A program made the position numbers and the translations under genes. From Candidatus Pacearchaeota archaeon (GTDB taxonomy: Archaea; Nanobdellota; Nanobdellia; Pacearchaeales; GW2011-AR1): 32,523 nucleotides of DNA. Location of the stretch: NCBI GenBank assembly GCA_018304205.1, contig JAGVWR010000005.1, positions 1 to 32,523 on the forward strand, read 5' to 3'. The notes under the pieces are model-generated. The model did no database searches. It was given only the letters and a program-made list of their open reading frames with translations, and was not told where the DNA came from. Positions 4,698 to 31,263 of the stretch are shown here, piece after piece (within the stretch, counting starts at the first letter, position 1; the number at the start of each line of letters is the position of its first letter).

Positions 4698-4785
4698 ATT
4701 ATGTTCAGGAACTTGACTCCTTGAAAGAAATCCATAAAAGATTTCTCTAGCATCCAAAGCACAAGTGCCTCATTGTGCTTTTGAT
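4698..4785 (-). repeat. intergenic repeat family, copy A (full length; terminal palindrome degenerate)
   Basis: The reverse complement reads atcaaaagcacaatgaggcacttgtgctttggatgctagagaaatcttttatggatttctttcaaggagtcaagttcctgaacataat. It aligns with copies at 6210, 8187 and 19048. Confidence 0.8.
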
Positions 4786-4804
4786 TTAAAGATTATTAAT
4801 AATA

Positions 4805-5152
4805 TTAAGCGGCTATCGGGATAAAGTCCTTGCTTAAGAATCTTTTAAAGTCTCTTTCTAGGCCTGGCTCAAAGTAGAATGTTGTTTTATTATCAAAGAA
4901 ATCTGTCCAATATGCCCTTCCAAAAACCCTTTCTCTGTTACTAGAATTAACTATAAGAAAACCATTTTGTTTTCTTTGGAGGAAACTATAATCTTCTTCA
5001 ATTCTTAGTTCTAAACTTCTATCCATTTCGTGAGCTCGTAACATCTCTGTGACTTCTTTTTGGTGTGATTTTATATAAGGGTATATCTTTTTGCATGCTT
5101 CTGCGCTCCTTTCTTCTTCCCTCTGCATTAAATCTTTCTCTTGTTTTTTCAC
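4805..5152 (-). CDS. hypothetical protein
   Basis: 115-aa ORF. No motif recognised. Confidence 0.5.
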   Translation of the reverse strand: MKKQEKDLMQREEERSAEACKKIYPYIKSHQKEVTEMLRAHEMDRSLELRIEEDYSFLQRKQNGFLIVNSSNRERVFGRAYWTDFFDNKTTFYFEPGLERDFKRFLSKDFIPIAA

Positions 5153-5252
5153 TATTTTTAAACTTGTTTTAAATTTAAGTATCTTTTGTTAATTTATACA
5201 ATATCAAAAGTTTAACAAAGTTAGGTCTTGACAAAGTAAGTTTTTGTTTCAC

Positions 5253-5266
5253 AAAAGATTTAAAAG
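5253..5266 (+). promoter_or_regulatory. BRE/TATA-like box for tRNA-Val
   Basis: aaaagatttaaaag is centred about 28 nt upstream of tRNA position 1 (5291). Confidence 0.5.
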
Positions 5267-5290
5267 ACTTAGATAATCTCAATATATATT

Positions 5291-5393
5291 GGCCCTGTAG
5301 TCTAGTGGCAAAACGACTCGTTTACAAGTATGGCGATGAAAGTCAAAAATACTAAAAGCCGAGTAGTCAGGAGTTCGATTCTCTTCAGGGCCA
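5291..5393 (+). tRNA. tRNA-Val (anticodon UAC) with a 32-nt intron at position 37/38
   Basis: Acceptor GGCCCTG/CAGGGCC. Anticodon stem ACTCG (5316-5320) pairs with CGAGT (5360-5364). Loop is TTTACA, then intron 5327-5358 with internal helix AGTAT/ATACT. T arm AGGAG-TTCGATT-CTCTT; discriminator A. The D stem has one mismatch. Confidence 0.85.
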
Positions 5394-5397
5394 TTTA
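5361..5397 (+). repeat. direct repeat, left copy (3' exon of tRNA-Val plus 4 nt)
   Basis: gagtagtcaggagttcgattctcttcagggccattta matches 5999-6035 at 34 of 37 positions. Confidence 0.85.
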
Positions 5398-5398
5398 A

Positions 5399-5725
5399 TT
5401 AAAATGTGGTCTTTAACTTCTGATTAATTAATTCTTTTACTTTAGAACTTTTTACTTCACCTATCTTTCCGTGAACTATGCTTTTATGCAAGGTAAAAAT
5501 CATATCAAGATAAATAAAAGAGTCAAAGCGAATATTTCCTTCGCAATCTTCTTTTTTAAGAATTATCTCATACTTTTGAATGTTTCTTCTTTTTGTTGTA
5601 ATTTGACAAAAAATAGTGTTATCTCCTTCTAACGAATTAATAACTAGTGCTGGTCTTTTTTTTGTTTTAGTTAAATCACTAAACGGAAAATTTACAAGAA
5701 CTATATCAAATTTTTTAAAAATCAT
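5399..5725 (-). CDS. PemK/MazF-family toxin (endoribonuclease-type)
   Basis: 'FDIVLVNFPFSDLTKTKKRPALVI' is the typical N-terminal PemK/MazF signature; 108 aa. Confidence 0.8.
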   Translation of the reverse strand: MIFKKFDIVLVNFPFSDLTKTKKRPALVINSLEGDNTIFCQITTKRRNIQKYEIILKKEDCEGNIRFDSFIYLDMIFTLHKSIVHGKIGEVKSSKVKELINQKLKTTF

Positions 5726-5952
5726 TGTAGATATGCGAATGCTTTATCATCTTCTTTTGATGCCCATGACTCCGAAAGAAGTTTTTCATCTCCTAGAAAA
5801 CGAGCATTATCCCAATCTTCTTTATCGAGTTGTTCCAATTCATTAACTCTTTTTTCAACTATCTTTCTAACAAATTCACTCCATTTTATCTCAGAATATT
5901 TTCTCATTTTTTTATATACCGTGTCATCTATTGATAGAGTTATGTTCGTCAT
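5722..5952 (-). CDS. RHH-type antitoxin candidate for the MazF-like toxin
   Basis: 'ITLSIDDTVYKKMRKYSEIKWSEFVRKIVEKRV' has an RHH-like pattern. 4-nt overlap with the toxin gene. Confidence 0.6.
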   Translation of the reverse strand: MTNITLSIDDTVYKKMRKYSEIKWSEFVRKIVEKRVNELEQLDKEDWDNARFLGDEKLLSESWASKEDDKAFAYLQ

Positions 5953-5998
5953 TGTACCCTAAGTGAGCTCACTTATTTAAATGTTTCTGTTTTTGTGT

Positions 5999-6035
5999 GA
6001 GTAATCAGGAGTTCGATTCTCTTCAGAGCTATTTA
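5999..6035 (+). repeat. direct repeat, right copy (degenerate tRNA-Val 3' exon)
   Basis: gagtaatcaggagttcgattctcttcagagctattta. Mismatches to the left copy at 6004, 6027 and 6030. The acceptor strand CAGAGCT can no longer pair with GGCCCTG. Confidence 0.85.
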
Positions 6036-6092
6036 TTAAAGAGAACAAAACTATATATTTGTATCTCATAAGAATTGAAGCCTTCGGACTAA

Positions 6093-6326
6093 ATGGAACA
6101 TGAAAGAGGTAAATGCGAAGGTTATTGGGAATGGTTTAGAAAGGATGGAACTAAAATGCGTTCAGACTATTTCAAAAAAGGAAAGCAAACTGGAAAATGG
6201 AATACATTTGATGCTAGAGAAATCTTTTATGGATTTCTCGGCACAGAAAATCTATTAGATTTTCTTGTGCTCAAGAAACGATCACACCTTGAAAGGTGTG
6301 GTTTTCTGTCAGGTTTCTTGACATAA
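6093..6326 (+). pseudogene. MORN-repeat-variant (YwqK-like) fragment whose 3' part is read-through into repeat copy B
   Basis: 'GKCEGYWEWFRKDGTKMRSDYFKKGKQTGKWNTFD' looks like two MORN-variant repeats. From about 6210 the ORF sequence is the intergenic repeat itself. Confidence 0.4.
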
Positions 6327-6329
6327 ATA
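6210..6329 (+). repeat. intergenic repeat family, copy B (expanded, with extra hairpins)
   Basis: gatgctagagaaatcttttatggatttctc, then GCACAGAAAATC/GATTTTCTTGTGC and CACACCTT/AGGTGTG hairpins, then ttctgtcaggtttcttgacataaata. Confidence 0.75.
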
Positions 6330-6351
6330 CTTTCTGAATAAGCAAGTTATC

Positions 6352-6369
6352 AAAGATTAACTATAAAAA
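6352..6369 (+). promoter_or_regulatory. BRE/TATA-like box for tRNA-Gly
   Basis: aaagattaactataaaaa. The TATA centre lies about 27 nt upstream of tRNA position 1 (6393). Confidence 0.45.
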
Positions 6370-6392
6370 CCCTTTATTCAAATTACATTTGT

Positions 6393-6480
6393 GCGATCAT
6401 AGTTAAGTGGTATAACGTCTCGTTGCCAAAATAAAAATTGCAAAAACGAGGAGTTTCGGGTCCGATTCCCGATGGTCGCA
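6393..6480 (+). tRNA. tRNA-Gly (anticodon GCC) with a short (~17 nt) intron at 37/38
   Basis: Acceptor GCGATCA/TGGTCGC (one G-U pair). D arm GTTA-AGTGGTA-TAAC. Anticodon stem TCTCG/CGAGG with loop TTGCCA, then intron 6429-6445. T arm TCGGG-TCCGATT-CCCGA; discriminator A. Confidence 0.75.
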
Positions 6481-6592
6481 TTCTTTTTTATTATTAAAAA
6501 GAGGACTAGTGTTTGCCAATAAAGAAATCACTGAAACAGCTCAAACAGATTAATAAGAAGGTGTTCGTTTTGAAGAACTTACTAAAAAATTA

Positions 6593-7099
6593 TTATTCAG
6601 AAATAAGTTCTTCAAGTTTAGGTGAGAATCTAGGTTTCCAATCACTACCACAAGGACTTTGATAGTGTTTGCTTATTTTTGGAGAAAATCCCGAATAACG
6701 AACTCCCAATCTATCCCCTACAGCAGTCTTATCGTAGTCAGGGTCAGAAACACTACAATAAAATCCAGATGATGCATCTTGAGCATCAATGGTTTCTCTT
6801 CCAAGATTCAAGCAAGATTGACATCCCCCGTCTGAATATTTCCGATAAGCATCAATAATCCCTTTCGCGGATGATAAATCAATACGAGTAGATACTTCTC
6901 CATTTAATTCATATTTACCATCTTCAATAACTTCTAAAACTCTTGCTAAACCAGCATTTAAGAAAGAACTATCTAATTTACCAACACTATTTCTTACATC
7001 ATGTAACATAGATAAAACTACTTTAGGAACTTTCTCTGCAGGAATATCTCCTAACCTATCCATCTTTGTTTCATATTTGACTTCTTGTAATAAAGGCAT
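6593..7099 (-). CDS. hypothetical Cys-containing protein
   Basis: 168-aa ORF with 'GGCQSCLNLG...FYCSVSD...SPCGSDW' (four Cys). No family recognised. Confidence 0.55.
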   Translation of the reverse strand: MPLLQEVKYETKMDRLGDIPAEKVPKVVLSMLHDVRNSVGKLDSSFLNAGLARVLEVIEDGKYELNGEVSTRIDLSSAKGIIDAYRKYSDGGCQSCLNLGRETIDAQDASSGFYCSVSDPDYDKTAVGDRLGVRYSGFSPKISKHYQSPCGSDWKPRFSPKLEELISE

Positions 7100-7189
7100 T
7101 CAAGAATTAATAAACAAGTCTTTAAAAAAATTTGGATACTCAAGATTAATATATACTAAATTAGTAAGGTCTTCACTTTGAAGTCTTTC

Positions 7190-8077
7190 TTAATAATCAG
7201 GAGAAGGACTTTGCTTTGCATTAACATTTGCAGAAGCTAAAGCAGGATTCGGCAAAAAACTAGAAGGGACATATCTGCCTTTAGAGCTTCTCATAGCTTC
7301 TATATACGGAGAGACAGGTATTGCTGCAGTTCTTTGAGAGTTATCTGGAAAACCATAATGTCTCTCTCCAGAAACAAAATTCACTGCTGTTGAAACTATC
7401 ATGGAAGCAGCAACAGCAACAACAGAAGCAAGTTTTACTATCCTGCCTCTGGTTCTCAATCTATCTCTATTTGTTCGTCTTTCTTTTGGATCAATTGTTA
7501 TTCCACTATAAACTAATCTAGGCTTAAATGCAGGAGCAGTTAATCTCGAAGACCCATATTCTCCAACTTGCAAAGGTCCTTGCAATTCATAATCTTCTGC
7601 AGTCATAGCACCTTCCAATTTTCCAACATCCTGACCGAGCATTTTTGGAATCTCCGCATATTTATTTTCGCTAGTAATAGCATCTAAGAATTTTGATGTT
7701 GAGACAAACCTTCCGCTTTCATCTCTTGGAATCAACTTCGTTTCTCTAAGCTCAAAACCATCATATTGCTCAACAATCTTGTCAAGAGCTTTAGAAATTG
7801 TGCTTCTATGTCTGTTAAACTGTCTAGCAATCTCGCTTTTGGACATTCCTGCCTGATAAAGACCATATACTTCAAGTGAGTCAGATTCATCCATTCTAAG
7901 ACCTTTTTTATCCAAATTACTTAATCTTCGGTATATTTCTTCAATTTCCATAGGCTTAAGATTATTTTTTGAATTTCTTTTTAAATTCAGTTTTCTTCTG
8001 GCTATAAGTCTAGGTTCTATTAAAGTTAAGGATCCAGGTCCCAGATCATTTGCCATTTTGTTCATAAAATCCTTCAA
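7190..8077 (-). CDS. HTH-domain protein with a C-terminal transmembrane anchor
   Basis: HTH 'AGMSKSEIARQFNRHRSTISKALDKI'. Single hydrophobic helix 'IVKLASVVAVAASMIVSTAVNFV' followed by a ~60-aa tail. Confidence 0.6.
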   Translation of the reverse strand: MKDFMNKMANDLGPGSLTLIEPRLIARRKLNLKRNSKNNLKPMEIEEIYRRLSNLDKKGLRMDESDSLEVYGLYQAGMSKSEIARQFNRHRSTISKALDKIVEQYDGFELRETKLIPRDESGRFVSTSKFLDAITSENKYAEIPKMLGQDVGKLEGAMTAEDYELQGPLQVGEYGSSRLTAPAFKPRLVYSGITIDPKERRTNRDRLRTRGRIVKLASVVAVAASMIVSTAVNFVSGERHYGFPDNSQRTAAIPVSPYIEAMRSSKGRYVPSSFLPNPALASANVNAKQSPSPDY

Positions 8078-8186
8078 AAATCTACTTATTTAAATCTTTC
8101 CAAAGTTACTATTATAAAGTTACTATCAAATATTATTTTCCGGATAATTATATTTAAATAATCTAGGTTTAGACTCTTTTTTAAAT

Positions 8187-8259
8187 ATCGAAGGCACGCT
8201 TGCTTTTGCTGCTAGAGAAATCTTTTATGGAGTTTTATCAAGTATCTTGACATAAATAG
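8187..8259 (+). repeat. intergenic repeat family, copy C
   Basis: atcgaaggcacgcttgcttttgctgctagagaaatcttttatggagttttatcaagtatcttgacataaatag. Confidence 0.8.
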
Positions 8260-8441
8260 CTCTTTACAAAGGGTTATTTCTATGATAAACTAGTTTACTA
8301 CTTTTATAAAGAGAAACATTTGTTTAAGGAATATCTTTTCAGAAAGAAAATTTAGAATGGGCATTAACTTTGGGTCCAACTATAGTTCAAGAAGGAGTAG
8401 TGGGATTAATATGTGAAGGAGTTGTTGGTGGGGCTTTTAGT

Positions 8442-8455
8442 AATAGATTTAAAAA
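8442..8455 (+). promoter_or_regulatory. BRE/TATA-like box for aroB
   Basis: aatagatttaaaaa is centred about 26 nt upstream of ATG 8477. Confidence 0.45.
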
Positions 8456-8476
8456 TTAGAAATTTCTTTATTATTA

Positions 8477-9466
8477 ATGATATTGAAGTCAAAGTTGTCT
8501 ATAATAGAAGTTGAGAGAGGACTAATAAGAAATGAGGGTATTCCTCTTGGATTTATTATAACTGATAGAAATGTCTTTGAAAGAAATAAAGAGTCATTAA
8601 AGAATAGAAAAGAAATGTTTGTTATTGAACCTGGTGAGAAAAGTAAGAGCATTGAAATATATATGCAGATTCTTAAAAAACTTTCAGAGATAGATTTTGT
8701 TGAAAGAATAATTGCTTTTGGGGGCGGAGTTGTAGGAGACATTGCAGGATTTGTAGCTTCCACTTATAAAAGAGGCATAGAACTAATTCAGATTCCTACA
8801 ACCTTACTTGCAATGGTCGATAGCGGCATAGGCGGTAAGAATGGAATAGACATAGGTTTAAAGAAAAATTATGTTGGGACCATATATCAACCAAAGAAGA
8901 TTTTGATTGATAGCTCCTTTTTAGACAGTCTGCCAGAAAAGGAATTTAGTAACGGATTGGCTGAAATGATAAAGCATTCATATATTATGAATAAACCTAA
9001 ATTGGAAAGATTTTGCAAGAAGGTTAACAAAAATGACAAGGATATAAATGAGATTATTTTGAAATCTGCCGAAGTGAAAATTAAGATTACGGAGAAAGAC
9101 ACAAAAGACAATGGACTACGAAAAGCGCTCAATTTTGGTCATACAATTGGGCATGCCATAGAATTGTTACATAATTTAAGTCATGGGGAAGCAATTTCCA
9201 TAGGTATGGTGAAGGAAGCGATGCTAGCAAATAAAATTGGACTTGTAAAGCAAGATAAAATAGATTCTTTAATCAAATCTTTTGAAGTAAATGGATTGCC
9301 AATAAGTTGGCCGAAAGGAGCTAGTGCAGAAAAAATAATAGAGATAATGAAATATGATAAGAAGGGTGCTTTTCTATTTGCTTTCGATATAAAGAATCAT
9401 AATAAATTTATCAATGAAAAAACAGTTAGGGATTTCTTGAAGGAAGACATTGATTTAAATGATTAA
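8477..9466 (+). CDS. aroB: 3-dehydroquinate synthase
   Basis: 'IIAFGGGVVGDIAGFVASTYKRGIELIQIPTTLLAMVDSGIGGKNGI' and 'LNFGHTIGHAIE' are hallmark AroB motifs. Confidence 0.9.
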   Translation: MILKSKLSIIEVERGLIRNEGIPLGFIITDRNVFERNKESLKNRKEMFVIEPGEKSKSIEIYMQILKKLSEIDFVERIIAFGGGVVGDIAGFVASTYKRGIELIQIPTTLLAMVDSGIGGKNGIDIGLKKNYVGTIYQPKKILIDSSFLDSLPEKEFSNGLAEMIKHSYIMNKPKLERFCKKVNKNDKDINEIILKSAEVKIKITEKDTKDNGLRKALNFGHTIGHAIELLHNLSHGEAISIGMVKEAMLANKIGLVKQDKIDSLIKSFEVNGLPISWPKGASAEKIIEIMKYDKKGAFLFAFDIKNHNKFINEKTVRDFLKEDIDLND

Positions 9467-9513
9467 TCTTTAAGTTTAACCTTTGTTGTAAATAACCTTA
9501 AATTTATAAATTT

Positions 9514-10380
9514 TTACAAATGGAATTTCGACATTAAGATTGGAAGTATGTGATAGTTAAACACCTTTATTAATGGCATGGATTTTGGAAAGATTTCGTA
9601 ATCCTTTTTTTTCAGTTTTTCTTCTAAATATTTTATAGAAAAATCTTCTAATAGATTATGGTTGCATAAAATATAAGAAATATCGGTATCTTGGTAATGA
9701 TGAGCATCTGAAACTGATATCCCTTTAACTCCATCAAGAACACTCTCTTCGTATCTTTGATTGTTTAATTCACCAGCTGATAGAGCATTAAACTCTTCAA
9801 AAAATACTTTTTCTTCTTTTACAAGCTTTATTGTTTTTTCAAGGGGTAAACTGTCAACAACATCTGAAGGATGGCAAACAATTGAGAAGCCGCCATTACT
9901 TGAAACATCAGATATTGTTTTTTCTGTATCTTGAGAATGAGGAACTAAATCTTCTAAACCTATTACGTTAATGTCCGCTGTTTCTCCATCATAAAGAGTT
10001 CTTACTTCTTGAGTATGTAATATTATTATAGAAGACAATTGCATTTTTTCAATGTCTTTTCTTATCTTTCTGTTTCTTTCGAATCTTGCCCATCCTTCTT
10101 TTTTATTATAGTTTATATTGAAATCATTGGTTAAATATTGCGCTTGAGACATGTAAGAAAAGAAACGGTCATCCATTCCACTTGTTGGAGTGTGACATGA
10201 GGAAAGAGCACAGATCCCAATTGCATTTTCAAAGGCGTTTTCTACAATATCTCTTAAAGAAGGAATTGGAAACAATTTTTTGTAAAGTCTTCCTGATTTA
10301 TCGCTAGGTCTATAAAAGTGAGGATGTGCGTGAAGAACAACTTTAAGTGCGTAGTTCTCATCATGTGCTGTCTTTCCCAT
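9514..10380 (-). CDS. PHP-family-like metal-dependent phosphoesterase
   Basis: His-rich motifs in PHP-like order: 'VVLHAHPHF', 'FSIVCHPSD', 'GISVSDAHHY'. The assignment is motif-based only. Confidence 0.5.
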   Translation of the reverse strand: MGKTAHDENYALKVVLHAHPHFYRPSDKSGRLYKKLFPIPSLRDIVENAFENAIGICALSSCHTPTSGMDDRFFSYMSQAQYLTNDFNINYNKKEGWARFERNRKIRKDIEKMQLSSIIILHTQEVRTLYDGETADINVIGLEDLVPHSQDTEKTISDVSSNGGFSIVCHPSDVVDSLPLEKTIKLVKEEKVFFEEFNALSAGELNNQRYEESVLDGVKGISVSDAHHYQDTDISYILCNHNLLEDFSIKYLEEKLKKKDYEIFPKSMPLIKVFNYHILPILMSKFHL

Positions 10381-10431
10381 AAAAATTGAGTTATTAGTAG
10401 ATATATAAATTTATTGTCTTTGTTTTTTAAT

Positions 10432-10983
10432 TTATGCATTACCTATTAAGTTCCTAAGAAAAAAGCCTACAACGAACGCAATAATTGCTGCAGCTCCGCC
10501 AATTAAAATAATCTCAAATACTGATTTAAATATATTTCTTTCAGTTACTCTTGCTTTTGCAATTCCGATTATAATAAAGGCAAGCGCGGTTAGCGCGATT
10601 GAATAAGAAAACTGATTTGCTCTTAAGGAAGGGATGAATACTGCCAATACAAAAGAGATTAAAGGAATAAATCCGATTATTACGAAGGAAAAGAAGGTGG
10701 CTATTGCAGTTTTCCTTGGGTTTTTTATATGTTCATGCCTATGTTTATGTTTTGCCATTAAATCATTTTCAGATTTTATAGCTAAGTAATTTGAAATAGC
10801 CATTGAAAAAGCATCTGCAAAAAGATTTGCGAAGCCAAGTATTAAGACTATGACTGAACTTAAAGAAGCGCCCATGACTCCCGCAACAACTGCAAAAGTA
10901 GTTACTGTTCCATCAATGGCGCCGTAAACAAACTCTTCTAAATACTTCTTTTCAAAACTCCTCTTTATTATCATAGGTATCAT
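10432..10983 (-). CDS. VIT1/CCC1-family iron/manganese transporter
   Basis: 'EEFVYGAIDGTVTTFAVVAGVMGA' signature plus multiple TM segments. Confidence 0.85.
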   Translation of the reverse strand: MIPMIIKRSFEKKYLEEFVYGAIDGTVTTFAVVAGVMGASLSSVIVLILGFANLFADAFSMAISNYLAIKSENDLMAKHKHRHEHIKNPRKTAIATFFSFVIIGFIPLISFVLAVFIPSLRANQFSYSIALTALAFIIIGIAKARVTERNIFKSVFEIILIGGAAAIIAFVVGFFLRNLIGNA

Positions 10984-11027
10984 TAGAAAATTATATATTT
11001 AAAATATCCCTATGACTTAGGAAAAAG

Positions 11028-11040
11028 AAAGATTTTTATA
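11028..11040 (+). promoter_or_regulatory. BRE/TATA-like box
   Basis: aaagatttttata is centred about 25 nt upstream of ATG 11062. Confidence 0.45.
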
Positions 11041-11061
11041 CAGAGTTTAAGGGGTTTTTCT

Positions 11062-11307
11062 ATGACATTTGTAAAAGATGATAATACTTTAGTATATACT
11101 GGGCCTTTTAGAAGTTGCTGGGATTATCTATTGAGAAATAAGTATACTCAGGAATTTCCTAGTACGGATCTCCCTATTTTTATACGTGGAAACGAAATAG
11201 TAGAAAGAGTGGAAATTATGGAAAATTTAGAACCGGATATGGAAAAAAGATATAAGATAGTGAGAAAAGAGGCAACCAGGAAAGATAGGTCTGGAATACA
11301 AAGATAA
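11062..11307 (+). CDS. hypothetical small protein
   Basis: 81-aa ORF with its own consensus promoter. Confidence 0.45.
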   Translation: MTFVKDDNTLVYTGPFRSCWDYLLRNKYTQEFPSTDLPIFIRGNEIVERVEIMENLEPDMEKRYKIVRKEATRKDRSGIQR

Positions 11308-11342
11308 GATAGTTTTAAAAACTTAAAAAAATACTTCTATAA

Positions 11343-13157: not shown

Positions 13158-13203
13158 TTAGATTTAGTCTAAATGTTACCATTATGGAAAGACATTAATA
13201 GGG

Positions 13204-13217
13204 AAAGATTTATATAT
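13204..13217 (+). promoter_or_regulatory. BRE/TATA-like box for the 13238 gene cluster
   Basis: aaagatttatatat is centred about 26 nt upstream of ATG 13238 (leaderless geometry). Confidence 0.5.
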
Positions 13218-13237
13218 CTATATTTTAAGTTTTCTAT

Positions 13238-14080
13238 ATGGATTGGAATGAAAAGTTTAGAAGCTGGGTTAAAGAAAACCCGGATGATTTTAAGAAGCTA
13301 AAAAGCCAAATTACTCAAAGGTCACTTGACTGGTATTTGTATAAGACTAAAGGAGTTTCTCATATAAATTTAGGTGCTAGAGTTAAATTATATAAAGCCA
13401 CAAAAATAGAAGAATTTCGTCCCGATAATTATATTGATCCTGAAACATTTGGTGTTGAAGATATTATAAAAAGAAAAGTTCCTTCAACAGCAATAGAAAT
13501 ATGGTTGGGATATAATGATATTGCAAAAACAGATTTTGCTAAAAGAACTGGAATTCATAGAGATAGTTTAACTAGTTATATAAATGGGGCGAAGGTAAAA
13601 GATTTCACATTAGTAAAGATTATTTCAGGCCTTAGAAAATACGCTAGTGAAGGCCCAAGTAGAAGAGGATTAGAGGCCGAAGAAGTTGATAAAGTTTTGA
13701 GAACTGCTGGCGAGGGTATTGGTAGGGGCAATGACGGAAGAGATATTGTTGATTTAATTGAAAGGGGTTTTGATGATTTGAAACAATACCTTGATAAATT
13801 AAATGATAAATCGAAAGTTAAACCTTCAAAAGATGGTGCTGCGCTTTCAGATAAATTAAAACAATTAGATGTAGCTATAGATTCTTTAGTAGACGCTATG
13901 GAGTATTATAAGGGGCAGGGAAGAGATGTTAGAATGAAATTAGCAAGTTACTTAGCTAGAACTAATCAATTGCATAGATTTGGATGGGCTTGGAACGTTT
14001 ATGGGGGATTGTCAAGAAGAGAGGACGATCCAGACTCATTTGCAAGAAGCACTAAACCCCCGGAGAAAAATAAAGCTTAA
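13238..14080 (+). CDS. double helix-turn-helix (XRE-like) protein; first gene of the GHKL cluster
   Basis: Two HTH-like segments: 'ITQRSLDWYLYKTKGVSHINLGARVKLY' and 'IAKTDFAKRTGIHRDSLTSYINGAKVKDFTLVKIISGL'. Helical C-terminal half. Confidence 0.6.
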   Translation: MDWNEKFRSWVKENPDDFKKLKSQITQRSLDWYLYKTKGVSHINLGARVKLYKATKIEEFRPDNYIDPETFGVEDIIKRKVPSTAIEIWLGYNDIAKTDFAKRTGIHRDSLTSYINGAKVKDFTLVKIISGLRKYASEGPSRRGLEAEEVDKVLRTAGEGIGRGNDGRDIVDLIERGFDDLKQYLDKLNDKSKVKPSKDGAALSDKLKQLDVAIDSLVDAMEYYKGQGRDVRMKLASYLARTNQLHRFGWAWNVYGGLSRREDDPDSFARSTKPPEKNKA

Positions 14081-14081
14081 A

Positions 14082-19047: not shown

Positions 19048-19119
19048 ATCAAAAGCACTTGTGCTTGGGATGCTAGAGAAATCTTTATGGAGTTTTGTCA
19101 AGTTTCTTGACATAATAGG
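19048..19119 (+). repeat. intergenic repeat family, copy D
   Basis: atcaaaagcacttgtgcttgggatgctagagaaatctttatggagttttgtcaagtttcttgacataatagg. Confidence 0.8.
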
Positions 19120-20346: not shown

Positions 20347-20538
20347 ATGAGTTCTTTAAGTGAATTAGTTAGCAGGGAATTGGCCAAAGATATTGATGAC
20401 CCTGTTAAATTTGTTCTTGAACTTTGGGTAGAATTCTTGCATAGGGCGATTAAGCCAAGTTATTGTTTTGATAAGAAGGATAGAATTAAACTGCAGGGTT
20501 TAGGAATTTCGGAAGAGAGATGCGAAATTATTATTTGA
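20347..20538 (+). CDS. hypothetical small protein
   Basis: 63-aa ORF starting 1 nt after the rpl10e stop. Confidence 0.4.
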   Translation: MSSLSELVSRELAKDIDDPVKFVLELWVEFLHRAIKPSYCFDKKDRIKLQGLGISEERCEIII

Positions 20539-20735
20539 TGTTTAATAATCTTGGGAGTGAAATGCCAGATGTCGTGTCCATGGCTCTTTTAGAAAATTTA
20601 AATGAATATTTAGAAAGGGCGAGCGAGGTAAAGGAAGTACGGAGTTTTGAGGAAACTGATAAGTTGGTTAATGAATTATGCAGGGGTTATAACGAATTGG
20701 CTAAGTATTTAAGAGAGATAAGAATAGCTAGATAA
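20520..20735 (+). CDS. hypothetical small protein (likely true start ATG 20538, TGATG overlap)
   Basis: 71-aa ORF. The internal ATG at 20538 overlaps the upstream TGA stop, suggesting translational coupling. Confidence 0.4.
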   Translation: MRNYYLMFNNLGSEMPDVVSMALLENLNEYLERASEVKEVRSFEETDKLVNELCRGYNELAKYLREIRIAR

Positions 20736-20737
20736 TT

Positions 20738-20760
20738 TTATGTTAAGAAACTTGACATAA
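20738..20760. repeat. intergenic repeat family, copy E (palindrome only)
   Basis: TTATGTtAAG-AAA-CTTGACATAA lies between a TATA-like taatttta (20732-20739) and ATG 20776. Confidence 0.65.
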
Positions 20761-20775: not shown

Positions 20776-21060
20776 ATGAGGATATATACAGGGTATAAAT
20801 TGACTATTCTTTCTATGATAACTGCTAACCATATTTCGGCTCAACATAAATATATATTTGCAATTGAAAAAGAAGAAAGAGAGGCTATCGACTTAGAAAA
20901 AATTGTTAAGGGTTTAAAAATTGCTCAACATGATTTAATAGATGATAATCCTATAAGGTTATTTAATCAAACAGCTAAGATGTATAGACTAGGAGACAGC
21001 ATAAGACAATTGGAGAGAAGTTTATATCTGATAATAGATAAAATAGTGTCGAATTTATAG
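20776..21060 (+). CDS. hypothetical protein
   Basis: 94-aa ORF. No motif recognised. Confidence 0.4.
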   Translation: MRIYTGYKLTILSMITANHISAQHKYIFAIEKEEREAIDLEKIVKGLKIAQHDLIDDNPIRLFNQTAKMYRLGDSIRQLERSLYLIIDKIVSNL

Positions 21061-21857: not shown

Positions 21858-21899
21858 AGAAGCAATAATATTTATTAAGTCAATTAATTTGTTCTATTA

Positions 21900-24755: not shown

Positions 24756-24810
24756 GGTTTTTGAGTATTGTTATGTTTGTTTTTGTTACTACTATTTAGT
24801 TACTTAAATA

Positions 24811-24824
24811 GAAAGATTTATAAA
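24811..24824 (+). promoter_or_regulatory. BRE/TATA-like box
   Basis: gaaagatttataaa is centred about 26 nt upstream of ATG 24846. Confidence 0.45.
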
Positions 24825-24845
24825 CCCTAATTGTATAGGAAAATC

Positions 24846-25715
24846 ATGACAAAAGCAAGATCAAATGTATACGAAGAGGTAATGAATCACCTCAAATTAT
24901 CTAGATTTATTCAGAAAAGTAAATCAGAAAGAGATAATCCTAGTAATCCTAACGATGTTATAAAATCTGCTGAAAAAGGGTTAAGAGACGCATTTTATGG
25001 TCAACTTGTTGCTTCTGGTTCAATAGATCCAAAGGTATTAAAAAGAGCAGATTTGAATGATCCAACCAATCCAAATTATGAAAATGGAAATAAGTTAATT
25101 GAAGGAAAGGCAGATCTTGAGTTAAGACATTCTGAAACAGCTGCATCTACAAAATTTAAGTCTAATTTAGATGATTTTGTTGGCAGTGTTCCTGAAGGAG
25201 ACTTAGAAAAAATGCTTGCTAATGATAAATCTGCGGGAATATTAGCTGGAGTTGCTGATGATAAAGAAACATTTGGGCTATATAAGGCTCATGAATCATT
25301 AAAGAAATTTGCTGAGGATTACAGAGCTAAGGGCGATGAAGCTATTGATTCTAAAGAAACTGCTCAAAAAATAATGGATTATAAGATAAAGGGAGCAAGA
25401 GCAGCTGAAATGAAATCAGTAAAGGAAAAGGGTTATAATGAGAGAGATCAAGCAAGTGCTGGAGAATTGGCTGAATTCGCAGCTAAAATAGGATTTACTG
25501 GAGAAAAAGGAAAAGAGTACGCCTTAACTGGAATAGAATCTGAAGTTAAAGAAATTGAAGAAAGACTTAAGGCAAAGGGAGACTTCAGGAAAGCACTTAG
25601 AGGAGCATACGAAAATCTCGCTAATAGAAATCTAGTAGTTGCCAGGGATCTTGCTTATGGGGCGCATGTAGATAAGATTGATGAAGAAGTTAGCAAATAT
25701 GTAAGAGAAAGATAA
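24846..25715 (+). CDS. hypothetical helical protein
   Basis: ORF with charged, helical composition. Start moved from TTG 24831 to ATG 24846 on promoter geometry. Confidence 0.55.
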   Translation: MTKARSNVYEEVMNHLKLSRFIQKSKSERDNPSNPNDVIKSAEKGLRDAFYGQLVASGSIDPKVLKRADLNDPTNPNYENGNKLIEGKADLELRHSETAASTKFKSNLDDFVGSVPEGDLEKMLANDKSAGILAGVADDKETFGLYKAHESLKKFAEDYRAKGDEAIDSKETAQKIMDYKIKGARAAEMKSVKEKGYNERDQASAGELAEFAAKIGFTGEKGKEYALTGIESEVKEIEERLKAKGDFRKALRGAYENLANRNLVVARDLAYGAHVDKIDEEVSKYVRER

Positions 25716-25722
25716 ACGCTAA

Positions 25723-26571
25723 TTAACCTTTAGTATTTTTTTGTTCTTCAATTAATTTGTTTATTATCTGAGTCATATCAAGAAGAAATTTTTCTGCGGT
25801 TTCCTGCCATTGATCAATTTCTGCGCCTTTTACATCATTAGTTTCTCCATAACTGATAGATTTGTGCAGGGCGTAAATATCTTTTAGGGCTCTTATCGCA
25901 TTCACTTTTAACATTCCTTTTTCAACAAAGGCGGTATTGAGAAGTTCTGGGAGATGTTCTGGACTAGGGGGTAATTTTCCAGCCATGATTAATGCAGCTT
26001 GCGCTGAATCAACCATGCACCAATAGACTCCTTCGATGGCACCAATTTCTGCAGATTTACTTCTTGCTAAATGTGCTGGTGCTCTTTGAAGAGCCGCATA
26101 AACTGCTTCAACCGTTGATTTTATTTTTCCTTGATATAGTAAAGATTTTATAGGATTAAAGAAACCTCCAGAATCAATAAGTGCTTCTCCATATCTTAAA
26201 ACATTTAGAACTACAGGATCTCCGTGAAGAAGGTCTTGCCACCATGTTGTTAATTTTATTGTATTAATATGCAAGTCTTTAGAGTAATCTTCTGCAGAAA
26301 TTAATTTTCCTAATTCTTCTCTATACCAAGCAACTAATTCTAAATCCCAACTTATTGAGGCATCGTCGATTATAATAATAATATCTATGTCAGAACTTGC
26401 ATTGGCAGTATTTTTCGCTTGACTTCCAAAAAGAATACTTGCTTTTACCATCTTGTCAAATTTTTGATGGACTTTCGTTGCGAAATCCATGGCTATTTCT
26501 CTTTCTGATCTAGGCTTATAATCCTTAGTGGATTTTTTTACTTGTTGTACTTTATCCCTCTTTTTTGTCAT
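25723..26571 (-). CDS. Pol-beta-superfamily nucleotidyltransferase with a helical (KNTase_C/HEPN-like) C-terminal domain
   Basis: 'ILFGSQAKNTANASSDIDIIIIIDD', 'GDPVVLNVLRYGEALIDSGGFF' and 'VYWCMVDSAQAALIMAGKLPPSPEH'. Paralogue of the core of ORF 11343-13157. Confidence 0.75.
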   Translation of the reverse strand: MTKKRDKVQQVKKSTKDYKPRSEREIAMDFATKVHQKFDKMVKASILFGSQAKNTANASSDIDIIIIIDDASISWDLELVAWYREELGKLISAEDYSKDLHINTIKLTTWWQDLLHGDPVVLNVLRYGEALIDSGGFFNPIKSLLYQGKIKSTVEAVYAALQRAPAHLARSKSAEIGAIEGVYWCMVDSAQAALIMAGKLPPSPEHLPELLNTAFVEKGMLKVNAIRALKDIYALHKSISYGETNDVKGAEIDQWQETAEKFLLDMTQIINKLIEEQKNTKG

Positions 26572-26618
26572 CTTATTAAGTTAATCTAAAGTTATTTTTA
26601 AATGTTTACAAATCATTT

Positions 26619-28457
26619 TTATTCCATTGGACTACCTGAAAGTCTATTTCTTCCCGACATTTGACCTCCAAGTTCTACTGGAAGATTTGAGAAACCTGTT
26701 CCATAAGTTTGGAAATGAATATCTGGAAGAATTGCTCCTTGCCCTGCAAAGTAGCCTCCAGATGCGCCAGATGCTTGGTTCCAATATGATCCTCTCGATG
26801 CTGCATAAACTGGAGTGCCAAATGCAGAAAGAGTTTCTCCATATGGAGAGACTGCTCCGAAGTGTTGAATCCAATCTCCAGTTTCTATTATTCTTTTAAT
26901 ATCTTCTACTTTCTTACCATATTGACTTAGTAATTTTTCATATTCTTTCATAGGGACGTTTCCCATTCCCATTGGAAGTTCTGAGTGAGACATACCAAAG
27001 TTATCTGATAAGTGAACGTGTTTAATGAATGGAGCCATTTTCTTAAACTGCTCTTTAAGATGCTCCTCTTTGTAACCATATTGCCTTAACATATTGATGT
27101 GTCCTACATCCCATGTTGCACCGATTAATTTTTCAGCTTCTTTTTCAGCTTCTTTTTTTGTCATGTCTAATTCTTTAACTGCTTTTTTCACAAATTTTTC
27201 TTTTGTTTGTTTGATTAGTTCTGAAAGCTCCTCTGCTCTTGTTAAACCCATTCCAACTGGAGGATTTTCAATGCTTAAAATTGGGGCGGTTTCCCCAAAT
27301 TTTTCAAATCCTTTGAATGCTACATTTGCAAAGGTTTCTGCTGATTTTTCTATTGCAAATTTGTCTAGAGGTTTATAAGATTCTGGAGCGTTTACAGAGT
27401 CAAGAATTCTGACTCCTTTTGAAATCGCTTCAGATAGTTCAACAATCTTTGATTTGTCGTCTTTATATTCGTTCATTAATGGAGCCACTTCTTCTCTAAA
27501 TTGTCCTAATTTATCCATTGTTTTTTGATCATCTTTCTTTTCTGCTATTTCATAAGCTTCATTGTAAGCGTCTTTTAATCTTCTATAAGATTCTCTGATA
27601 TAAACGTCACCTTGTCCCATACCATTTATTATTTGGTCTGCTGCTTTTCTTGATTCTGGACTAAGATCATTAAGAAATTTTTGTCCTTCAGGTGTTAAAG
27701 ATTTTGCATAGATTTCTTCTGCTTTTTTCCCTCTTAATTCTGTATTTGTATTTTCAGTATCTCTGAAAATTTTATTAACCTCACCAATAAATTCTCTTCC
27801 TCGTGAGGCTGGCAAGGAAATTTCACTTAATTTTTGCTCCCAACGTTGTTCATTTATATTATTTAATTCCGTATCTATATCTTTTTTCTCTCCGAATAAA
27901 TAATCTTTTTTTGGTTTAGGAACCGTTCCAAAACTTCCAGTTCTTTCGTCTATAACATACAAATTTGTTGTTTCTTCTTCTCCCTGATCATTGATTATTC
28001 TTGTTCTTGGTTCTGGAAGAGAGTGGCTTGCGTGCATTGTAACAACTATATTTCCATCCGGATCTATTTTGTGTCCTCTTTCAACTGCTTCCCAAATTTG
28101 TCTTTCTGCTTGTATTCTTTGATTTTCATCCCAACTTCCTCCTTGAGGGTTTATTCCAGTTGGTTCTATCATTGGGCCATGTAAGGTAAGATCTGCACCT
28201 ACTAATTTCTTGAGCCTATGAATTTCTTCTAAATGTTGATTTGGGATTGCTTTTGCAACTTCTGCAAAGGTCATTTGAACTTCTACTGTTTTAGTTCCCG
28301 TATTGAGTGCATCAGAAGTTGCTTTTAATTGATTTGCAGTTTGAGGGTTTATGGCCGAACCTATGCTACTCGTCGAGACATAATGATTAATTGGATTGCC
28401 ATGATTTGGATCTAGTCCATAATCTGCTCCAGAATAAAATCTTTCGCTATATTTCAT
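26619..28457 (-). CDS. xylose-isomerase-like / AP-endonuclease-2-type TIM-barrel protein split by a ~230-aa helical insertion, with a Gly-rich tail
   Basis: N-terminal part has 'LTLHGPMIEPTG' and 'IVVTMHASH'. C-terminal part has 'LSIENPP', 'IGATWDVGHINM' and 'IKHVHLSDNFGMSHSELPMGMGNVPMKEY'. SD-like gaggag lies 8 nt upstream of the ATG. Confidence 0.6.
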   Translation of the reverse strand: MKYSERFYSGADYGLDPNHGNPINHYVSTSSIGSAINPQTANQLKATSDALNTGTKTVEVQMTFAEVAKAIPNQHLEEIHRLKKLVGADLTLHGPMIEPTGINPQGGSWDENQRIQAERQIWEAVERGHKIDPDGNIVVTMHASHSLPEPRTRIINDQGEEETTNLYVIDERTGSFGTVPKPKKDYLFGEKKDIDTELNNINEQRWEQKLSEISLPASRGREFIGEVNKIFRDTENTNTELRGKKAEEIYAKSLTPEGQKFLNDLSPESRKAADQIINGMGQGDVYIRESYRRLKDAYNEAYEIAEKKDDQKTMDKLGQFREEVAPLMNEYKDDKSKIVELSEAISKGVRILDSVNAPESYKPLDKFAIEKSAETFANVAFKGFEKFGETAPILSIENPPVGMGLTRAEELSELIKQTKEKFVKKAVKELDMTKKEAEKEAEKLIGATWDVGHINMLRQYGYKEEHLKEQFKKMAPFIKHVHLSDNFGMSHSELPMGMGNVPMKEYEKLLSQYGKKVEDIKRIIETGDWIQHFGAVSPYGETLSAFGTPVYAASRGSYWNQASGASGGYFAGQGAILPDIHFQTYGTGFSNLPVELGGQMSGRNRLSGSPME

Positions 28458-28504
28458 TTCATTATATCTCCTCTTTCGTTATTAAACCTTATTTTATTTA
28501 AATT

Positions 28505-29077
28505 TTAGTATTTGTCAAATCTTTTATCTCTTTTTGTAAGACTTGATGAGCTATACTTTTCATCTGGGGTCTGTTCTTCCATTTGAATAGATTGATTTCT
28601 AGTATTTTGACCAATGTTAGTGTTTACATTTTGAGGCATAAACATTTGGTCTGCCGAACTTCTTTGTTGAATAAGGCTTCTATTTTGAAGTATAGGGGCA
28701 TTTGAAGAAAGAATTTCTTGTCTTAGTGATGGAAGTACTGATGAAGGGGTCTGATTCATAGTTCTATATTGATTAGTGTTTGTTTGTTCTGATTGTCTAT
28801 ATTGAAAATTGTTTTGTTCATTGTTTCTTTGTTCTATCTCTGTTGTTTGTCTTTGAACTTCTCTTACATTTGGGTTTGCTTCCAGTACAGGGGAAATCTG
28901 TTCAGCAGGCAAGTCATTTAAAAATCCCTTAATTTGTTGTTTTTCAGCATTATGAATTTCACTCTCTAAGTTAACTTGATTTTTAACGGAAGTGAAACTA
29001 TCTTTTTTTATTTCTTTTATCTTTATGTCTTTTTCTATTAATCTTATGAATTTTATTTTCTTTGTATTTTTAGCCAT
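28505..29077 (-). CDS. Q/N-rich low-complexity protein
   Basis: 190 aa. Basic N-terminus, then a Q/N/T/S-rich stretch ('QRNNEQNNFQYRQSEQTNTNQYRTMNQ...'). Confidence 0.5.
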   Translation of the reverse strand: MAKNTKKIKFIRLIEKDIKIKEIKKDSFTSVKNQVNLESEIHNAEKQQIKGFLNDLPAEQISPVLEANPNVREVQRQTTEIEQRNNEQNNFQYRQSEQTNTNQYRTMNQTPSSVLPSLRQEILSSNAPILQNRSLIQQRSSADQMFMPQNVNTNIGQNTRNQSIQMEEQTPDEKYSSSSLTKRDKRFDKY

Positions 29078-29128
29078 TTATTAGTGAGGAAAAACTAGTA
29101 TAATAATGTTTTTAGTATGGAAAAGACA

Positions 29129-30712
29129 TTACAAAACAGGGGGGAAGGCAGGCATAGAGTTTGATTTTTTGTAGGAATCATATGCTTTTCTGCATTTCCA
29201 TCTTGCTTCCATGATTGCTTGAGATCTGAATACCTTTTCTTCGTCAGTATCTTTATCAATTCCTTCTTTTTCGTCTTTACCTTCGTCTTTTTTGTTTTTA
29301 TCTTTTTTAAAGAATGAGAATAACGCAGAGAAAGGGTTTTCATCATCGCCATTCTTCGATTCTTCTTTTTTTTCTTCTTTCTTCTTCTTTTCTTCCCACT
29401 TCTTATTGTCTAAAAATTCGTCAATGTCATCTTGCAGCGCGCCTAAACTTTCTGTAGTTGCCCCTTCTATCCATTGATATACATCACCCATATCGTCTTT
29501 TGCAAGTTCTTTTTTTAGAACGTTTAATTCATCATCATTGAGACCATAACTTGTGAAAGTCATAGTTACTTTTCCTCTGTAAGTATAGCCTCCTCTTTGA
29601 TCTGATCTATCTGGGGCGCTTCTATATTTGAATTCAACTATAATTATTGAGTGATATTTTCTTAGATCAAGCTTTCTAAAAGATTTTGGAATTTCTCCTG
29701 ACTGAATATCTCCTTCTGGGTCATATTTTGCTTTTCCTAAAAGAACTAATTCGAAAATTGCAGTGTTAAACATGCTAGCCATTGAAGCATCTGGGGAAGC
29801 TCTTTGTTCTAATTGTCTTGCAGCTTTCAAATAAGGTTTTATCCATTGTGAATATAATCTTAATGAATTTACTTGACTCATAAGATATTTTCTTTCAATT
29901 TCAAATCTTTTTCTTAATTCAACATCTGATTCTTTAATCCATCTAAAGAATTCTCCGACTCTTTGCTGGAGTAGTCTTCTTACTCTTTCATTTAAGTCTA
30001 AACCTCCTTTTTCTGGGCTGTTTATGACATCATCTAAGGATCGCAGAGCCATGAAAGCATCTATAAGGGTAATAAAGTTTGGCTGGTTTGCCCCTCCAAC
30101 GGCAAGTGCTTTAATGGAACTATTTCCTCTCTTTATATCAACTTGATCAAGCCAAATTTGCTTTAGTGAGAGAAGTGCCGCAATCTTTTTCCCTTCATCA
30201 TCTTTTTGATTATAATCATCATATTGCGCTAATCTTAACTTGAATTCTTTTAAGTCATAGACTATGTTAAGAACAGATCTTAAGACAGCATTAGCTGTTT
30301 GGAATATTTTCATTGCTTCTTCCTGCATTCTCGTTGCTCTTTGTTGATATTCTGAAAAGAAACCTGAGCCTGCAGTTGAAGTGAAATTATCAACTAACCT
30401 TTCTGCTTCACCATATTCTGCTTGAATATAATCGAGTATAAAGAAATAAATAGGTTCAAGATTTTGAGCAAATGCGTCATAATCTAATCTGTGTTTTTCT
30501 ATAGGATTTTTTAATCCCTGAAGAGAGAATGCACTTTTTGCAAGTCTTAAGTGTTGGACTTCCATGTAATCTGAAGAAACAACTTTTGCTTTTTCTGCAG
30601 CCTTAAGGTACCCTTCTTCTTTTGCTATATCCTTTACTTCAGCTATAAATTCTTTATCACAATAAGTATCTGGGCTTACCGCCGCAATTAATTTATGTAT
30701 GTCTACTGCCAT
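29129..30712 (-). CDS. large orphan protein with a charged K/E-rich linker and a putative amphipathic segment near the C-terminus
   Basis: 527-aa ORF of non-repetitive, well-balanced composition. No P-loop or other catalytic motif seen. 'KKWEEKKKKEEKKEESKNGDDENPFSALFSFFKKDKNKKDEG' lies near the C-terminus. Confidence 0.6.
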   Translation of the reverse strand: MAVDIHKLIAAVSPDTYCDKEFIAEVKDIAKEEGYLKAAEKAKVVSSDYMEVQHLRLAKSAFSLQGLKNPIEKHRLDYDAFAQNLEPIYFFILDYIQAEYGEAERLVDNFTSTAGSGFFSEYQQRATRMQEEAMKIFQTANAVLRSVLNIVYDLKEFKLRLAQYDDYNQKDDEGKKIAALLSLKQIWLDQVDIKRGNSSIKALAVGGANQPNFITLIDAFMALRSLDDVINSPEKGGLDLNERVRRLLQQRVGEFFRWIKESDVELRKRFEIERKYLMSQVNSLRLYSQWIKPYLKAARQLEQRASPDASMASMFNTAIFELVLLGKAKYDPEGDIQSGEIPKSFRKLDLRKYHSIIIVEFKYRSAPDRSDQRGGYTYRGKVTMTFTSYGLNDDELNVLKKELAKDDMGDVYQWIEGATTESLGALQDDIDEFLDNKKWEEKKKKEEKKEESKNGDDENPFSALFSFFKKDKNKKDEGKDEKEGIDKDTDEEKVFRSQAIMEARWKCRKAYDSYKKSNSMPAFPPVL

Positions 30713-30730
30713 CTTTTTTATACTTCTAAG

Positions 30731-30744
30731 TAATTTACTTTAGT
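30731..30744 (-). promoter_or_regulatory. BRE/TATA-like box for the 30712 minus-strand cluster
   Basis: The minus strand reads ctaaagtaaatta, centred about 25 nt upstream of ATG 30712. Confidence 0.4.
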
Positions 30745-30846
30745 TGTATTTATCAGAGAAAACGTTTATTTAAAGATTACTCATATTTTTAGGGTTTAAG
30801 AAAAACTAATAAATAACTTTAAAAGTAAAGAATCTTTCGATTTTTT

Positions 30847-31200
30847 ATGACATATGGTTTTAATTTCTTACAAAGCGGAAGGGAAGATCCGCTTAGAAGG
30901 AAGAAGGATTATGAGATTATTCCATATAAACATAGTCTTGGAAATCAAGGAGGAATTGCATCTTATCCGTTAGGTTCTTCTGGGTCAGGAGCAGGATACA
31001 GCGGAAGAAGTCTACTTGCAAGAATAGATTCTGGAATGTCAAAATATGAAGATAAAACTAAAAAAGGAAAATCAAATCCGCTTCATGCAGAGTATCCACA
31101 AGGGGAACAAAGGACGGGGAATTATCCTAACTTGAGCGAGGCTTTAAAGAATTCAATATCTTACTTTAGAAGTTCTGCAAGTTACAAAAAAGCTGCATAA
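30847..31200 (+). CDS. hypothetical G/S-rich small protein
   Basis: 117-aa ORF. No motif recognised. Confidence 0.4.
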   Translation: MTYGFNFLQSGREDPLRRKKDYEIIPYKHSLGNQGGIASYPLGSSGSGAGYSGRSLLARIDSGMSKYEDKTKKGKSNPLHAEYPQGEQRTGNYPNLSEALKNSISYFRSSASYKKAA

Positions 31201-31241
31201 AAAGTACTTCAAAACATATTTTATAAAGCTAGTTTTTCTTT

Positions 31242-31263
31242 ATTATGTCAAGAAACTTGACAG
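31242..31263 (-). repeat. intergenic repeat family, copy F (palindrome end only, inverted)
   Basis: The reverse complement ctgtcaagtttcttgacataat matches the 3' end of copy D. Lies 17 nt upstream of the GNAT ATG. Confidence 0.65.

Follow-up and report, generated by a model that had tools for sequence, protein, structure and literature searches.

Six repeats in a 32,523-nt stretch of DNA from a Candidatus Pacearchaeota archaeon (contig JAGVWR010000005.1 of assembly GCA_018304205.1; hereafter the window) belong to a larger repeat family. We consider it likely that the six repeats and their family are a non-autonomous mobile hairpin element resembling MITEs (miniature inverted-repeat transposable elements) and repetitive extragenic palindromic (REP) sequences, probably moved as single-stranded DNA by an enzyme of the insertion sequence (IS) type IS200/IS605 acting in trans. 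That the repeat is mobile and non-autonomous is very likely, while the assignment of the mobilising enzyme to the HUH single-strand type is more tentative. A sequence-only reading of the window had described the six repeats and offered a MITE-like mobile repeat, a small-RNA gene family or a shared operator as candidates; all six are present, and none is expected by chance in shuffled sequence.

Precise insertion at a target containing ATAA

Direct evidence of mobility comes from two contigs, L021 and L025, which are 96.4% identical over 2.4 kb. L021 has an empty site, GAGTAAT^ATAATTTTG, and L025 carries 176 nt (ATCAAAAGC...CTTGAC) at the caret. The empty allele is also present in Logan contigs of two independent runs, where 176 nt are skipped with 2 ambiguous letters. 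The element thus inserts precisely, and precise empty sites exist. A second site in the same pair of contigs is filled in both strains, by 180 nt in L021 and by 83 nt in L025, and hairpin modules are thus lost or exchanged at a fixed locus. For the window copies A to D no empty alleles were found in eight runs.

As the empty site already contains ATAA, this tetranucleotide is target DNA and not the end of the element, for which the sequence-only reading had taken it. ATAA then follows 20 of 21 copies, which on the other strand places the element 3' of TTAT, and the 5' flank shows a weak RAW preference. Compared as an inverted repeat, the first and last 12 nt match at 6 of 12 positions, and no convincing terminal inverted repeats (TIRs) were found; the best local similarity between the ends is TCAA-AAG vs TCAAGAA (10/13, one gap). 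The comparison of filled and empty sites leaves at most a 2-nt AT repeat at the junctions. A TA duplication of the Tc1/IS630 type was considered and rejected, since T occupies position -1 in only 8 of 21 copies. Of the earlier proposal of a MITE-like mobile repeat, the mobility stands, given the filled and empty site, the high copy number and the occurrence across species described below, whereas a classical MITE is not supported, as convincing TIRs are lacking and a possible duplication would not exceed 2 nt.

Two further observations were made at or near copies of the element. Beside the polymorphic site, L025 (~13760-13800) and L021 (~900-1000) differ by a 15-nt insert, TGCTTGGTTAAACCC, in a tRNA-like gene, which may represent presence and absence of a tRNA intron. 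In L013, two element variants (4417-4527 and 10371-10480), of which the second is at the end of the contig, have a 22-nt 3' flank in common. The assembly has probably been joined here through the repeat, an artefact that shows how the elements break or mis-join metagenome assemblies.

A mosaic of hairpin modules

An exact scan of JGI metagenome contigs identified 18 loci that share a core of 21-22 nt, nearly all of them from one groundwater metagenome. Together with BLAST searches using a full-length copy, this led to a catalogue of ~27 distinct copies, 23-187 nt in length, from contigs of Woese-/Pacearchaeota-like DPANN archaea in Rifle groundwater; the further copies that the sequence-only reading had suggested counting therefore exist. 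The master form has a length of ~176 nt, or 180 nt counting the trailing ATAA, and the 180-nt form reads ATCAAAAGCAYGATGTGCC[ACTCCACCTTTAAAGGTGGAGT]TTGAAAAGGCACTCATGCTTTGGATGCTAGAGAAATCTTTTATGGATTTCTC[GGCACAGAAAATCCATAAGATTTTCTTGTGCTC]AAGAAACG[ACCACACCTTGAAAGGTGTGGT]TTTCTGTCAAGTTTCTTGACATAA. Its modules follow the order M1 (a long stem with a nested small hairpin), the linker GGATGC, H2, M3, M4 and the terminal hairpin M5. The tip of M3 is the reverse complement of the H2 unit, and M4 resembles the hairpin nested within M1. Hence, the element is a mosaic of few hairpin units. Whole modules are absent from the shorter copies, and in our reading of the alignment the missing segments are flanked by the short direct repeats TGCT, CAAG, TTTCT and GCCAC/GGCAC, as would be expected for slippage across hairpins. 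Solo units that fit single REPs are copies E and F of the window and L016:5532-5554; the other modules are of several kinds and stand in fixed order.

The full copy folds at -84.5 kcal/mol, compared with -39.5 for shuffled sequences (z = -11.6). In an alignment of 24 copies, 95.6% of the stem cells are paired, vs 30-48% with slid partners, and 13 pairs have changed on both sides. The compensatory changes in the stems for which the sequence-only reading had suggested a check are therefore present, many of them as whole-hairpin variants such as CTCCACC/GGTGGAG vs CCACGGC/GCCGTGG. A kissing interaction between the H2 and M3 loops and a pseudoknot between the H2 loop and the 3' tail were also considered and rejected, as neither is kept in relatives; the complementarity of the two loops is better explained by the M3 tip being an inverted H2 unit.

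Searches of Rfam 15, at the gathering threshold and at E <= 10, returned nothing at the repeat copies, the only matches in the window being two tRNAs. The core pattern has no match in 185,579 species genomes, a set of GTDB representatives that does not include the host species, and none in viral contigs. Patterns for H2 and for the terminal hairpin gave four matches in viral contigs, none accompanied by other element modules, which we judged to be due to chance. In agreement with the earlier impression that the repeat is not a described one, the element constitutes an undescribed modular hairpin-mosaic family without an Rfam match.

Copies in the window

Allowing up to 3 mismatches, the palindrome pattern matches at 6304-6326, 8233-8255, 19093-19115, 20738-20760 and 31243-31265, compared with 0.00 matches expected from 100 dinucleotide-preserving shuffles, and the core GATGCTAGAGAAATCTTTTATGGAGTTTT matches at 4726-4754(-), 6210-6238 and 8208-8236, with 0 expected from as many shuffles. 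The core of copy D has a 1-nt deletion and was recovered by repeat search and alignment. The parts that had been recognised from the sequence, namely hairpin 1 (AAAGCAC...GTGCTT), the core GATGCTAGAGAAATCTTT(T)ATGGA and the terminal hairpin GTCAAG-TTT-CTTGAC followed by ATAA, are borne out, except that hairpin 1 had been ascribed to all four long copies and is absent from copy B. The positions and composition of the copies are given in Table 1.

Table 1. Copies of the hairpin element in the window, with strand and modules.
Copy	Position	Strand	Length	Composition
A	4699-4785	-	87 nt	Short hairpin 1; core, including the middle hairpin; terminal hairpin degenerate (GTCAAGTTCCTGAAC)
B	6210-6326	+	117 nt	5'-truncated, no hairpin 1; core/H2, M3 (GGCACAG...CTTGTGCTC), M4 (CACACCTTGAAAGGTGTG), terminal hairpin + ATAA
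C	8187-8255	+	69 nt	Minimal form with hairpin 1 (degenerate), core and terminal hairpin ATCAAGTATCTTGAC, then ATAA
D	19048-19115	+	68 nt	Minimal form, 72 nt upstream of rpl35ae: hairpin 1 19051-19066, core 19069-19096, terminal hairpin 19097-19111, ATAA 19112-19115
E	20738-20760	- (orientation from loop)		Most likely a solo terminal hairpin, TTATGTTAAGAAACTTGACATAA
F	31243-31267	-		Most likely a solo terminal hairpin; minus strand = TTTTCTGTCAAGTTTCTTGACATAA

Judged from their modules, copies A, C and D can be read as minimal deletion forms, M1(short)-core-M5. In copy A, which is the same in contigs L004, L005, L007 and L008, the ATAA at 4699-4702 represents target-site bases. Copy B is 96.6% identical to positions 64-180 of the full element, and its ~66 extra nt form two further hairpins (fold z = -6.0). 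It overlaps a 77-aa open reading frame (ORF, 6093-6326) without a Pfam match. It starts with repeats resembling MORN/YwqK-type motifs (GKCEGYWEWFRKDGTKMRSDYFKKGKQTGKWNTF) and probably represents a fragment of a gene that was truncated at or by copy B.

Copy E sits in a 40-nt spacer between the ORFs 20520-20735 and 20776-21060. On its minus strand, copy F is identical to the final 25 nt of the full-length form (25/25), and both E and F have the loop AAA vs TTT in the long copies. Because of this loop and of the match of copy F to the element end, the two copies most likely represent terminal hairpins that stand alone and in reverse orientation. The sequence-only reading had the CTTGACATAA end facing the next gene in every case, which fails for E and F.

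Abundance, genomic position and spread

In two runs, the read depth of the element is 47-68 times that of adjacent single-copy DNA; in other runs it reaches 8-30 times that of the flanks, and the bin containing copy D is 8-10 times deeper than its flanks in four runs. The catalogued copies are intergenic and lie between divergent, tandem and convergent genes, in sense and antisense, and some of them take up exactly the space from stop codon to stop codon of two convergent genes. The distance from the palindrome to the start codon ranges from 0 to >500 nt, and the palindrome also faces 3' gene ends. Across 21-27 copies of other contigs, no rule of orientation relative to neighbouring genes was found, so that the gene-directed orientation noted in the window is not a family feature. 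Neither are the TATA-like boxes that had been noted at copies A, C and D: they belong to the flanking DNA, and many copies are without an AT-rich box at this place, with flanks such as ...ctctgga, ...aaacggt and ...tttgtg that contain no TATA-like box.

The element is also present in a second species. Contig L010 is syntenic with the window, with proteins that are 44-66% identical, and therefore comes from a different species. It carries an element with 88-93% identity to the window copies and 98% identity to the copy in L015. The window position orthologous to the L010 element has no copy, and L010 in turn lacks one next to its L10e (rpl35ae-operon) gene. Of 43 distant relatives searched in their PPDK neighbourhoods, 3 have diverged versions in which the layout is the same and the stems are compensated. 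These versions start with ATCAAAA, end in C-ATAA and retain GGATGC as well as the H2 loop TCTTTTATGGA, and a covariance model detects one distant copy outside its training set with E = 1.3e-5.

In one distant relative, contig L042 contains a cluster of nested hairpins of ~320 nt (~6790-7110, minus strand) upstream of rpl35ae at 7183, in which an H2-like unit and three other hairpins lie within the loop of the M1 inner hairpin. The cluster occupies the same intergenic region as copy D in inverted orientation. This points to nested insertion as the way in which the cluster grew, and to a hot spot of insertion rather than a conserved regulatory site.

Proposed mode of mobilisation

The lack of inverted ends and of a real duplication, the fixed tetranucleotide on one side only, the end hairpins with compensatory changes and the precise empty site together are the signature of HUH/Y1 transposition or of a REP system with its associated tyrosine transposase (RAYT). 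We propose that the element would be recognised as folded single-stranded DNA and moved by an HUH/Y1 enzyme, either IS200/IS605 TnpA-like or RAYT-like, that is encoded elsewhere in the genome; recognition and movement in this folded form would also be the reason why the stems are preserved. The strand active in this process would be opposite to the one given in the sequence-only reading, TTAT/GTCAAG...GCTTTTGAT/ (slashes mark the boundaries of the element). TTAT is the commonest IS605 left-end cleavage site (PMC9956272), and the IS family with the widest distribution in Archaea is IS200/IS605 (PMC13343696). The target, RAW-AT-AAWW, would resemble an archaeal TATA box, which may explain why copies lie beside TATA-like boxes in promoter regions.

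Non-autonomous IS200/IS605 derivatives (PATE-like elements) are similar to the element in several respects: they are small, non-coding and multi-copy, they have neither TIRs nor a real duplication, they carry hairpins at both ends and are inserted 3' of TTAT, and they leave a precise empty site. In IS608, the two end hairpins are mutually alike, lie at some distance from the cleavage sites and have a guide tetranucleotide at their foot. The element differs from such derivatives in that its hairpins abut the ends and differ between left and right, and in having five modules instead of two ends, and no cognate TnpA, TnpB or full-length IS was found in the sequence examined.

Several observations weigh against this proposal. 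The two end hairpins are unlike and abut both ends of the element, and mobility is documented by a single clean pair of filled and empty sites. The opposite strand folds equally well (z = -11.1), and the variable stem mismatches (15 G-T vs 10 A-C) show no strand bias; since both strands fold and mismatches are unbiased, these data favour neither strand as the folded one and fit DNA as well as RNA. Other species in the samples may contribute to the excess in depth. A 2-nt crossover core, as used by a serine or DEDD recombinase, or a 2-bp duplication would likewise account for the AT at both junctions. Furthermore, no transposase was found beside any copy, in the window or elsewhere in the 0.84 Mb examined, which comprise ~0.2 Mb of host-related contigs and 0.65 Mb from relatives and cover the host genome far from completely; nor was a protein-coding version seen that has the element ends as its bounds.

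The search for an enzyme covered several kinds of evidence. A Pfam census of 122 neighbouring ORFs contained no transposase among the 25 families listed of 97 matched, and detailed scans of 56 ORFs from the window, the loci and the relatives revealed housekeeping and toxin-antitoxin genes, and no transposase. Neither the host-related sequence nor that of the relatives contained a Y1 TnpA or a full-length IS with the element ends, and no RAYT gene was found in the sequence examined. A tblastn search with an approximate IS608 TnpA sequence as the query returned nothing. Four proteins of ~290 aa encoded beside copies, which were not assigned to a family, are mutually non-homologous. The helix-turn-helix (HTH) protein encoded at 7190-8065 was considered as a transposase and rejected, as the match is limited to a short HTH segment and the protein has, in our reading, a hydrophobic, membrane-like segment.

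Alternative explanations

The most serious competitor, which we nevertheless consider improbable, is another enzyme: a recombinase of the IS607 serine or IS110 DEDD type that crosses over at a 2-nt AT core, or a DDE transposase producing a 2-bp AT duplication. It would account for the AT at both junctions, with an ambiguity between filled and empty sites of exactly 2 nt, and for the weak end similarity (10/13 with one gap). However, a DDE transposase is at odds with the lack of a convincing terminal inverted repeat (6/12), and the Tc1/IS630-type TA duplication is excluded by the 8 of 21 copies with T at -1. These enzymes give no reason for five hairpins conserved with compensatory changes, which recognition of folded single-stranded DNA would provide, and none of them was found in the 0.84 Mb examined.

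Slightly less probable again is a function as RNA, for which the stems would be kept and which may come in addition to mobility: either the copies would be genes for structured small RNAs, or they would act in cis by read-through, as terminators or mRNA stabilisers in the manner of bacterial REPs. The strong conserved structure with its compensatory changes agrees with such a role, as do the conservation of GGATGC and TCTTTTATGGA in linker and loop even in distant relatives, the copies that exactly fill convergent-gene gaps and the position of copy E within a probable operon spacer. Yet the copies have no Rfam match, their orientation relative to genes is random and there is no excess of G-U over A-C mismatches. 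The 5' flanks contain no shared promoter; they are not conserved and are often not AT-rich, which speaks against the small-RNA genes with a TATA box of their own that the sequence-only reading had envisaged. The copies are also dispensable, as one site is empty in a strain of 96% identity and modules have been lost at fixed loci. This dispensability between strains argues against an essential role at each locus. No word of the element was found in three tiny SOLiD metatranscriptomes.

That the repeat is a stand-alone omega-RNA cassette for TnpB is very unlikely. In such a cassette, a scaffold of ~150 nt on the reverse strand would end in ...GCTTTTGAT, the adjacent flank would serve as the guide and TTAT as the transposon-adjacent motif (TAM). 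The size, the multi-hairpin scaffold and the right-end place in an IS200/IS605-like layout would fit, and TTAT is the TAM of the ISDge10 TnpB (PMC10787141). However, no TnpB-like gene (OrfB_IS605) is among the Pfam matches listed for the window and the copy-adjacent ORFs, and the free loss of modules would not be tolerable for a scaffold.

A shared operator, with a dimeric regulator bound to TTATGTCAAG-N3-CTTGACATAA between TATA box and start codon, can practically be dismissed: although copies E and F are near-perfect palindromes with 10-bp arms 12-15 nt upstream of start codons and the window encodes HTH proteins, the palindrome forms the terminal hairpin module of a mobile element, mostly in the company of unrelated hairpins, half of it (ATAA) is target DNA predating insertion, it occurs in all orientations, at distances from 0 to >500 nt from start codons and at 3' and convergent gene ends, and the orthologous positions examined in the related species L010 are empty.

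Genomic context

The window has a G+C content of ~31-32% and encodes rpL35Ae, L10e, aroB, PPDK and several toxin-antitoxin pairs. Contigs from Rifle aquifer metagenomes carry proteins identical to those of the window. Among the 185,579 species genomes, the closest relatives of its PPDK are all from metagenome-assembled genomes of Woesearchaeota, Pacearchaeota or Nanoarchaeota, the best with 71% identity. The host is a DPANN archaeon without a species-level representative.

The two tRNAs matched by Rfam contain introns (5291-5393 and 6393-6480, with 51.7 and 51.8 bits); ARAGORN finds neither. The 3' part of the first is repeated at 5999-6040 (88% over 42 nt), and between the two repeats lie a MazF/PemK toxin gene at 5399-5725 and, upstream of it, a small ORF at 5722-5952, which is RHH_12 on homologous contigs. 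This region looks like a small integrated islet, or its remnant, at a tRNA gene. Toxin-antitoxin or defence-type genes are dense for a small genome (3611-4650, 5399-5952, 21215-21857, 25723-26571 and 31737-32392) and comprise HTH-MNT with HEPN, MazF with its RHH partner, a MazE/AbrB-like gene with PIN, a further MNT and a ParE/YoeB-like pair. A link of the MNT/HEPN genes to the element copies was considered and rejected; they account for 7 of the 122 ORFs, but those located by phmmer lie at least ~0.9 kb away. Two adjacent paralogous ORFs of 82 aa (920-1168 and 1248-1496) are matched by only one in the otherwise collinear JGI contig L007, a small strain-level difference in copy number.

Relation to known elements and significance

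The element behaves closest to IS200/IS605-derived elements and bacterial REPs and bacterial interspersed mosaic elements (BIMEs), without demonstrably being a member of either. With REPs, BIMEs and REPINs it appears to share short palindromes preceded by a fixed tetranucleotide, single units like copies E and F, mosaics in which some units are inverted (the M3 tip), and an intergenic, high-copy distribution, often at gene ends. It differs from REP/RAYT systems in its AT-rich stems, those of REPs being GC-rich, in several hairpin types in fixed order and in that no RAYT was found.

Classical MITEs (Correia, RUP, the SM elements of Sulfolobus), which have clear TIRs and target duplications, are likewise small, non-coding and multi-copy and show insertion polymorphism, but the element has no clear TIR and at most a 2-nt duplication. 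These MITEs and the pneumococcal BOX elements (boxA-boxB(n)-boxC), which are modular repeats of bacteria, resemble it in being small, non-coding and intergenic, with stable predicted folds and a variable number of modules. We know of no trans-acting REP/RAYT-like or IS200-like system described in Archaea.

It is conceivable, if rather unlikely, that the family is the first archaeal counterpart of the REP/BIME-RAYT systems, a hairpin mosaic maintained and spread between co-occurring DPANN species by a single-strand DNA enzyme or another enzyme in trans, whose conserved loops (GGATGC, UCUUUUAUGGA) would mark a role useful to the host, such as in forming or stabilising RNA 3' ends or in providing guide-RNA scaffolds. 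Archaea are known to have IS200-type Y1 proteins but not RAYTs, the RAYT subclasses having been reported in Bacteria only (PMC6006769). REPINs are described as being inherited mainly vertically (10.1101/2022.05.22.493013), whereas the element spreads between species.

The near-identical copies in a second species with ~55% protein identity point to recent exchange of DNA among uncultivated symbionts. DPANN archaea have very small genomes that are usually thought to be poor in repetitive DNA; here, one hairpin-mosaic element is apparently present in tens of copies that vary between strains. The element can serve as a practical marker in the typing of strains and accounts for assembly breaks at these points, and it provides a concrete substrate in looking for the responsible enzyme. 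Given its TATA-like target, insertions in promoter regions could alter the expression of neighbouring genes.

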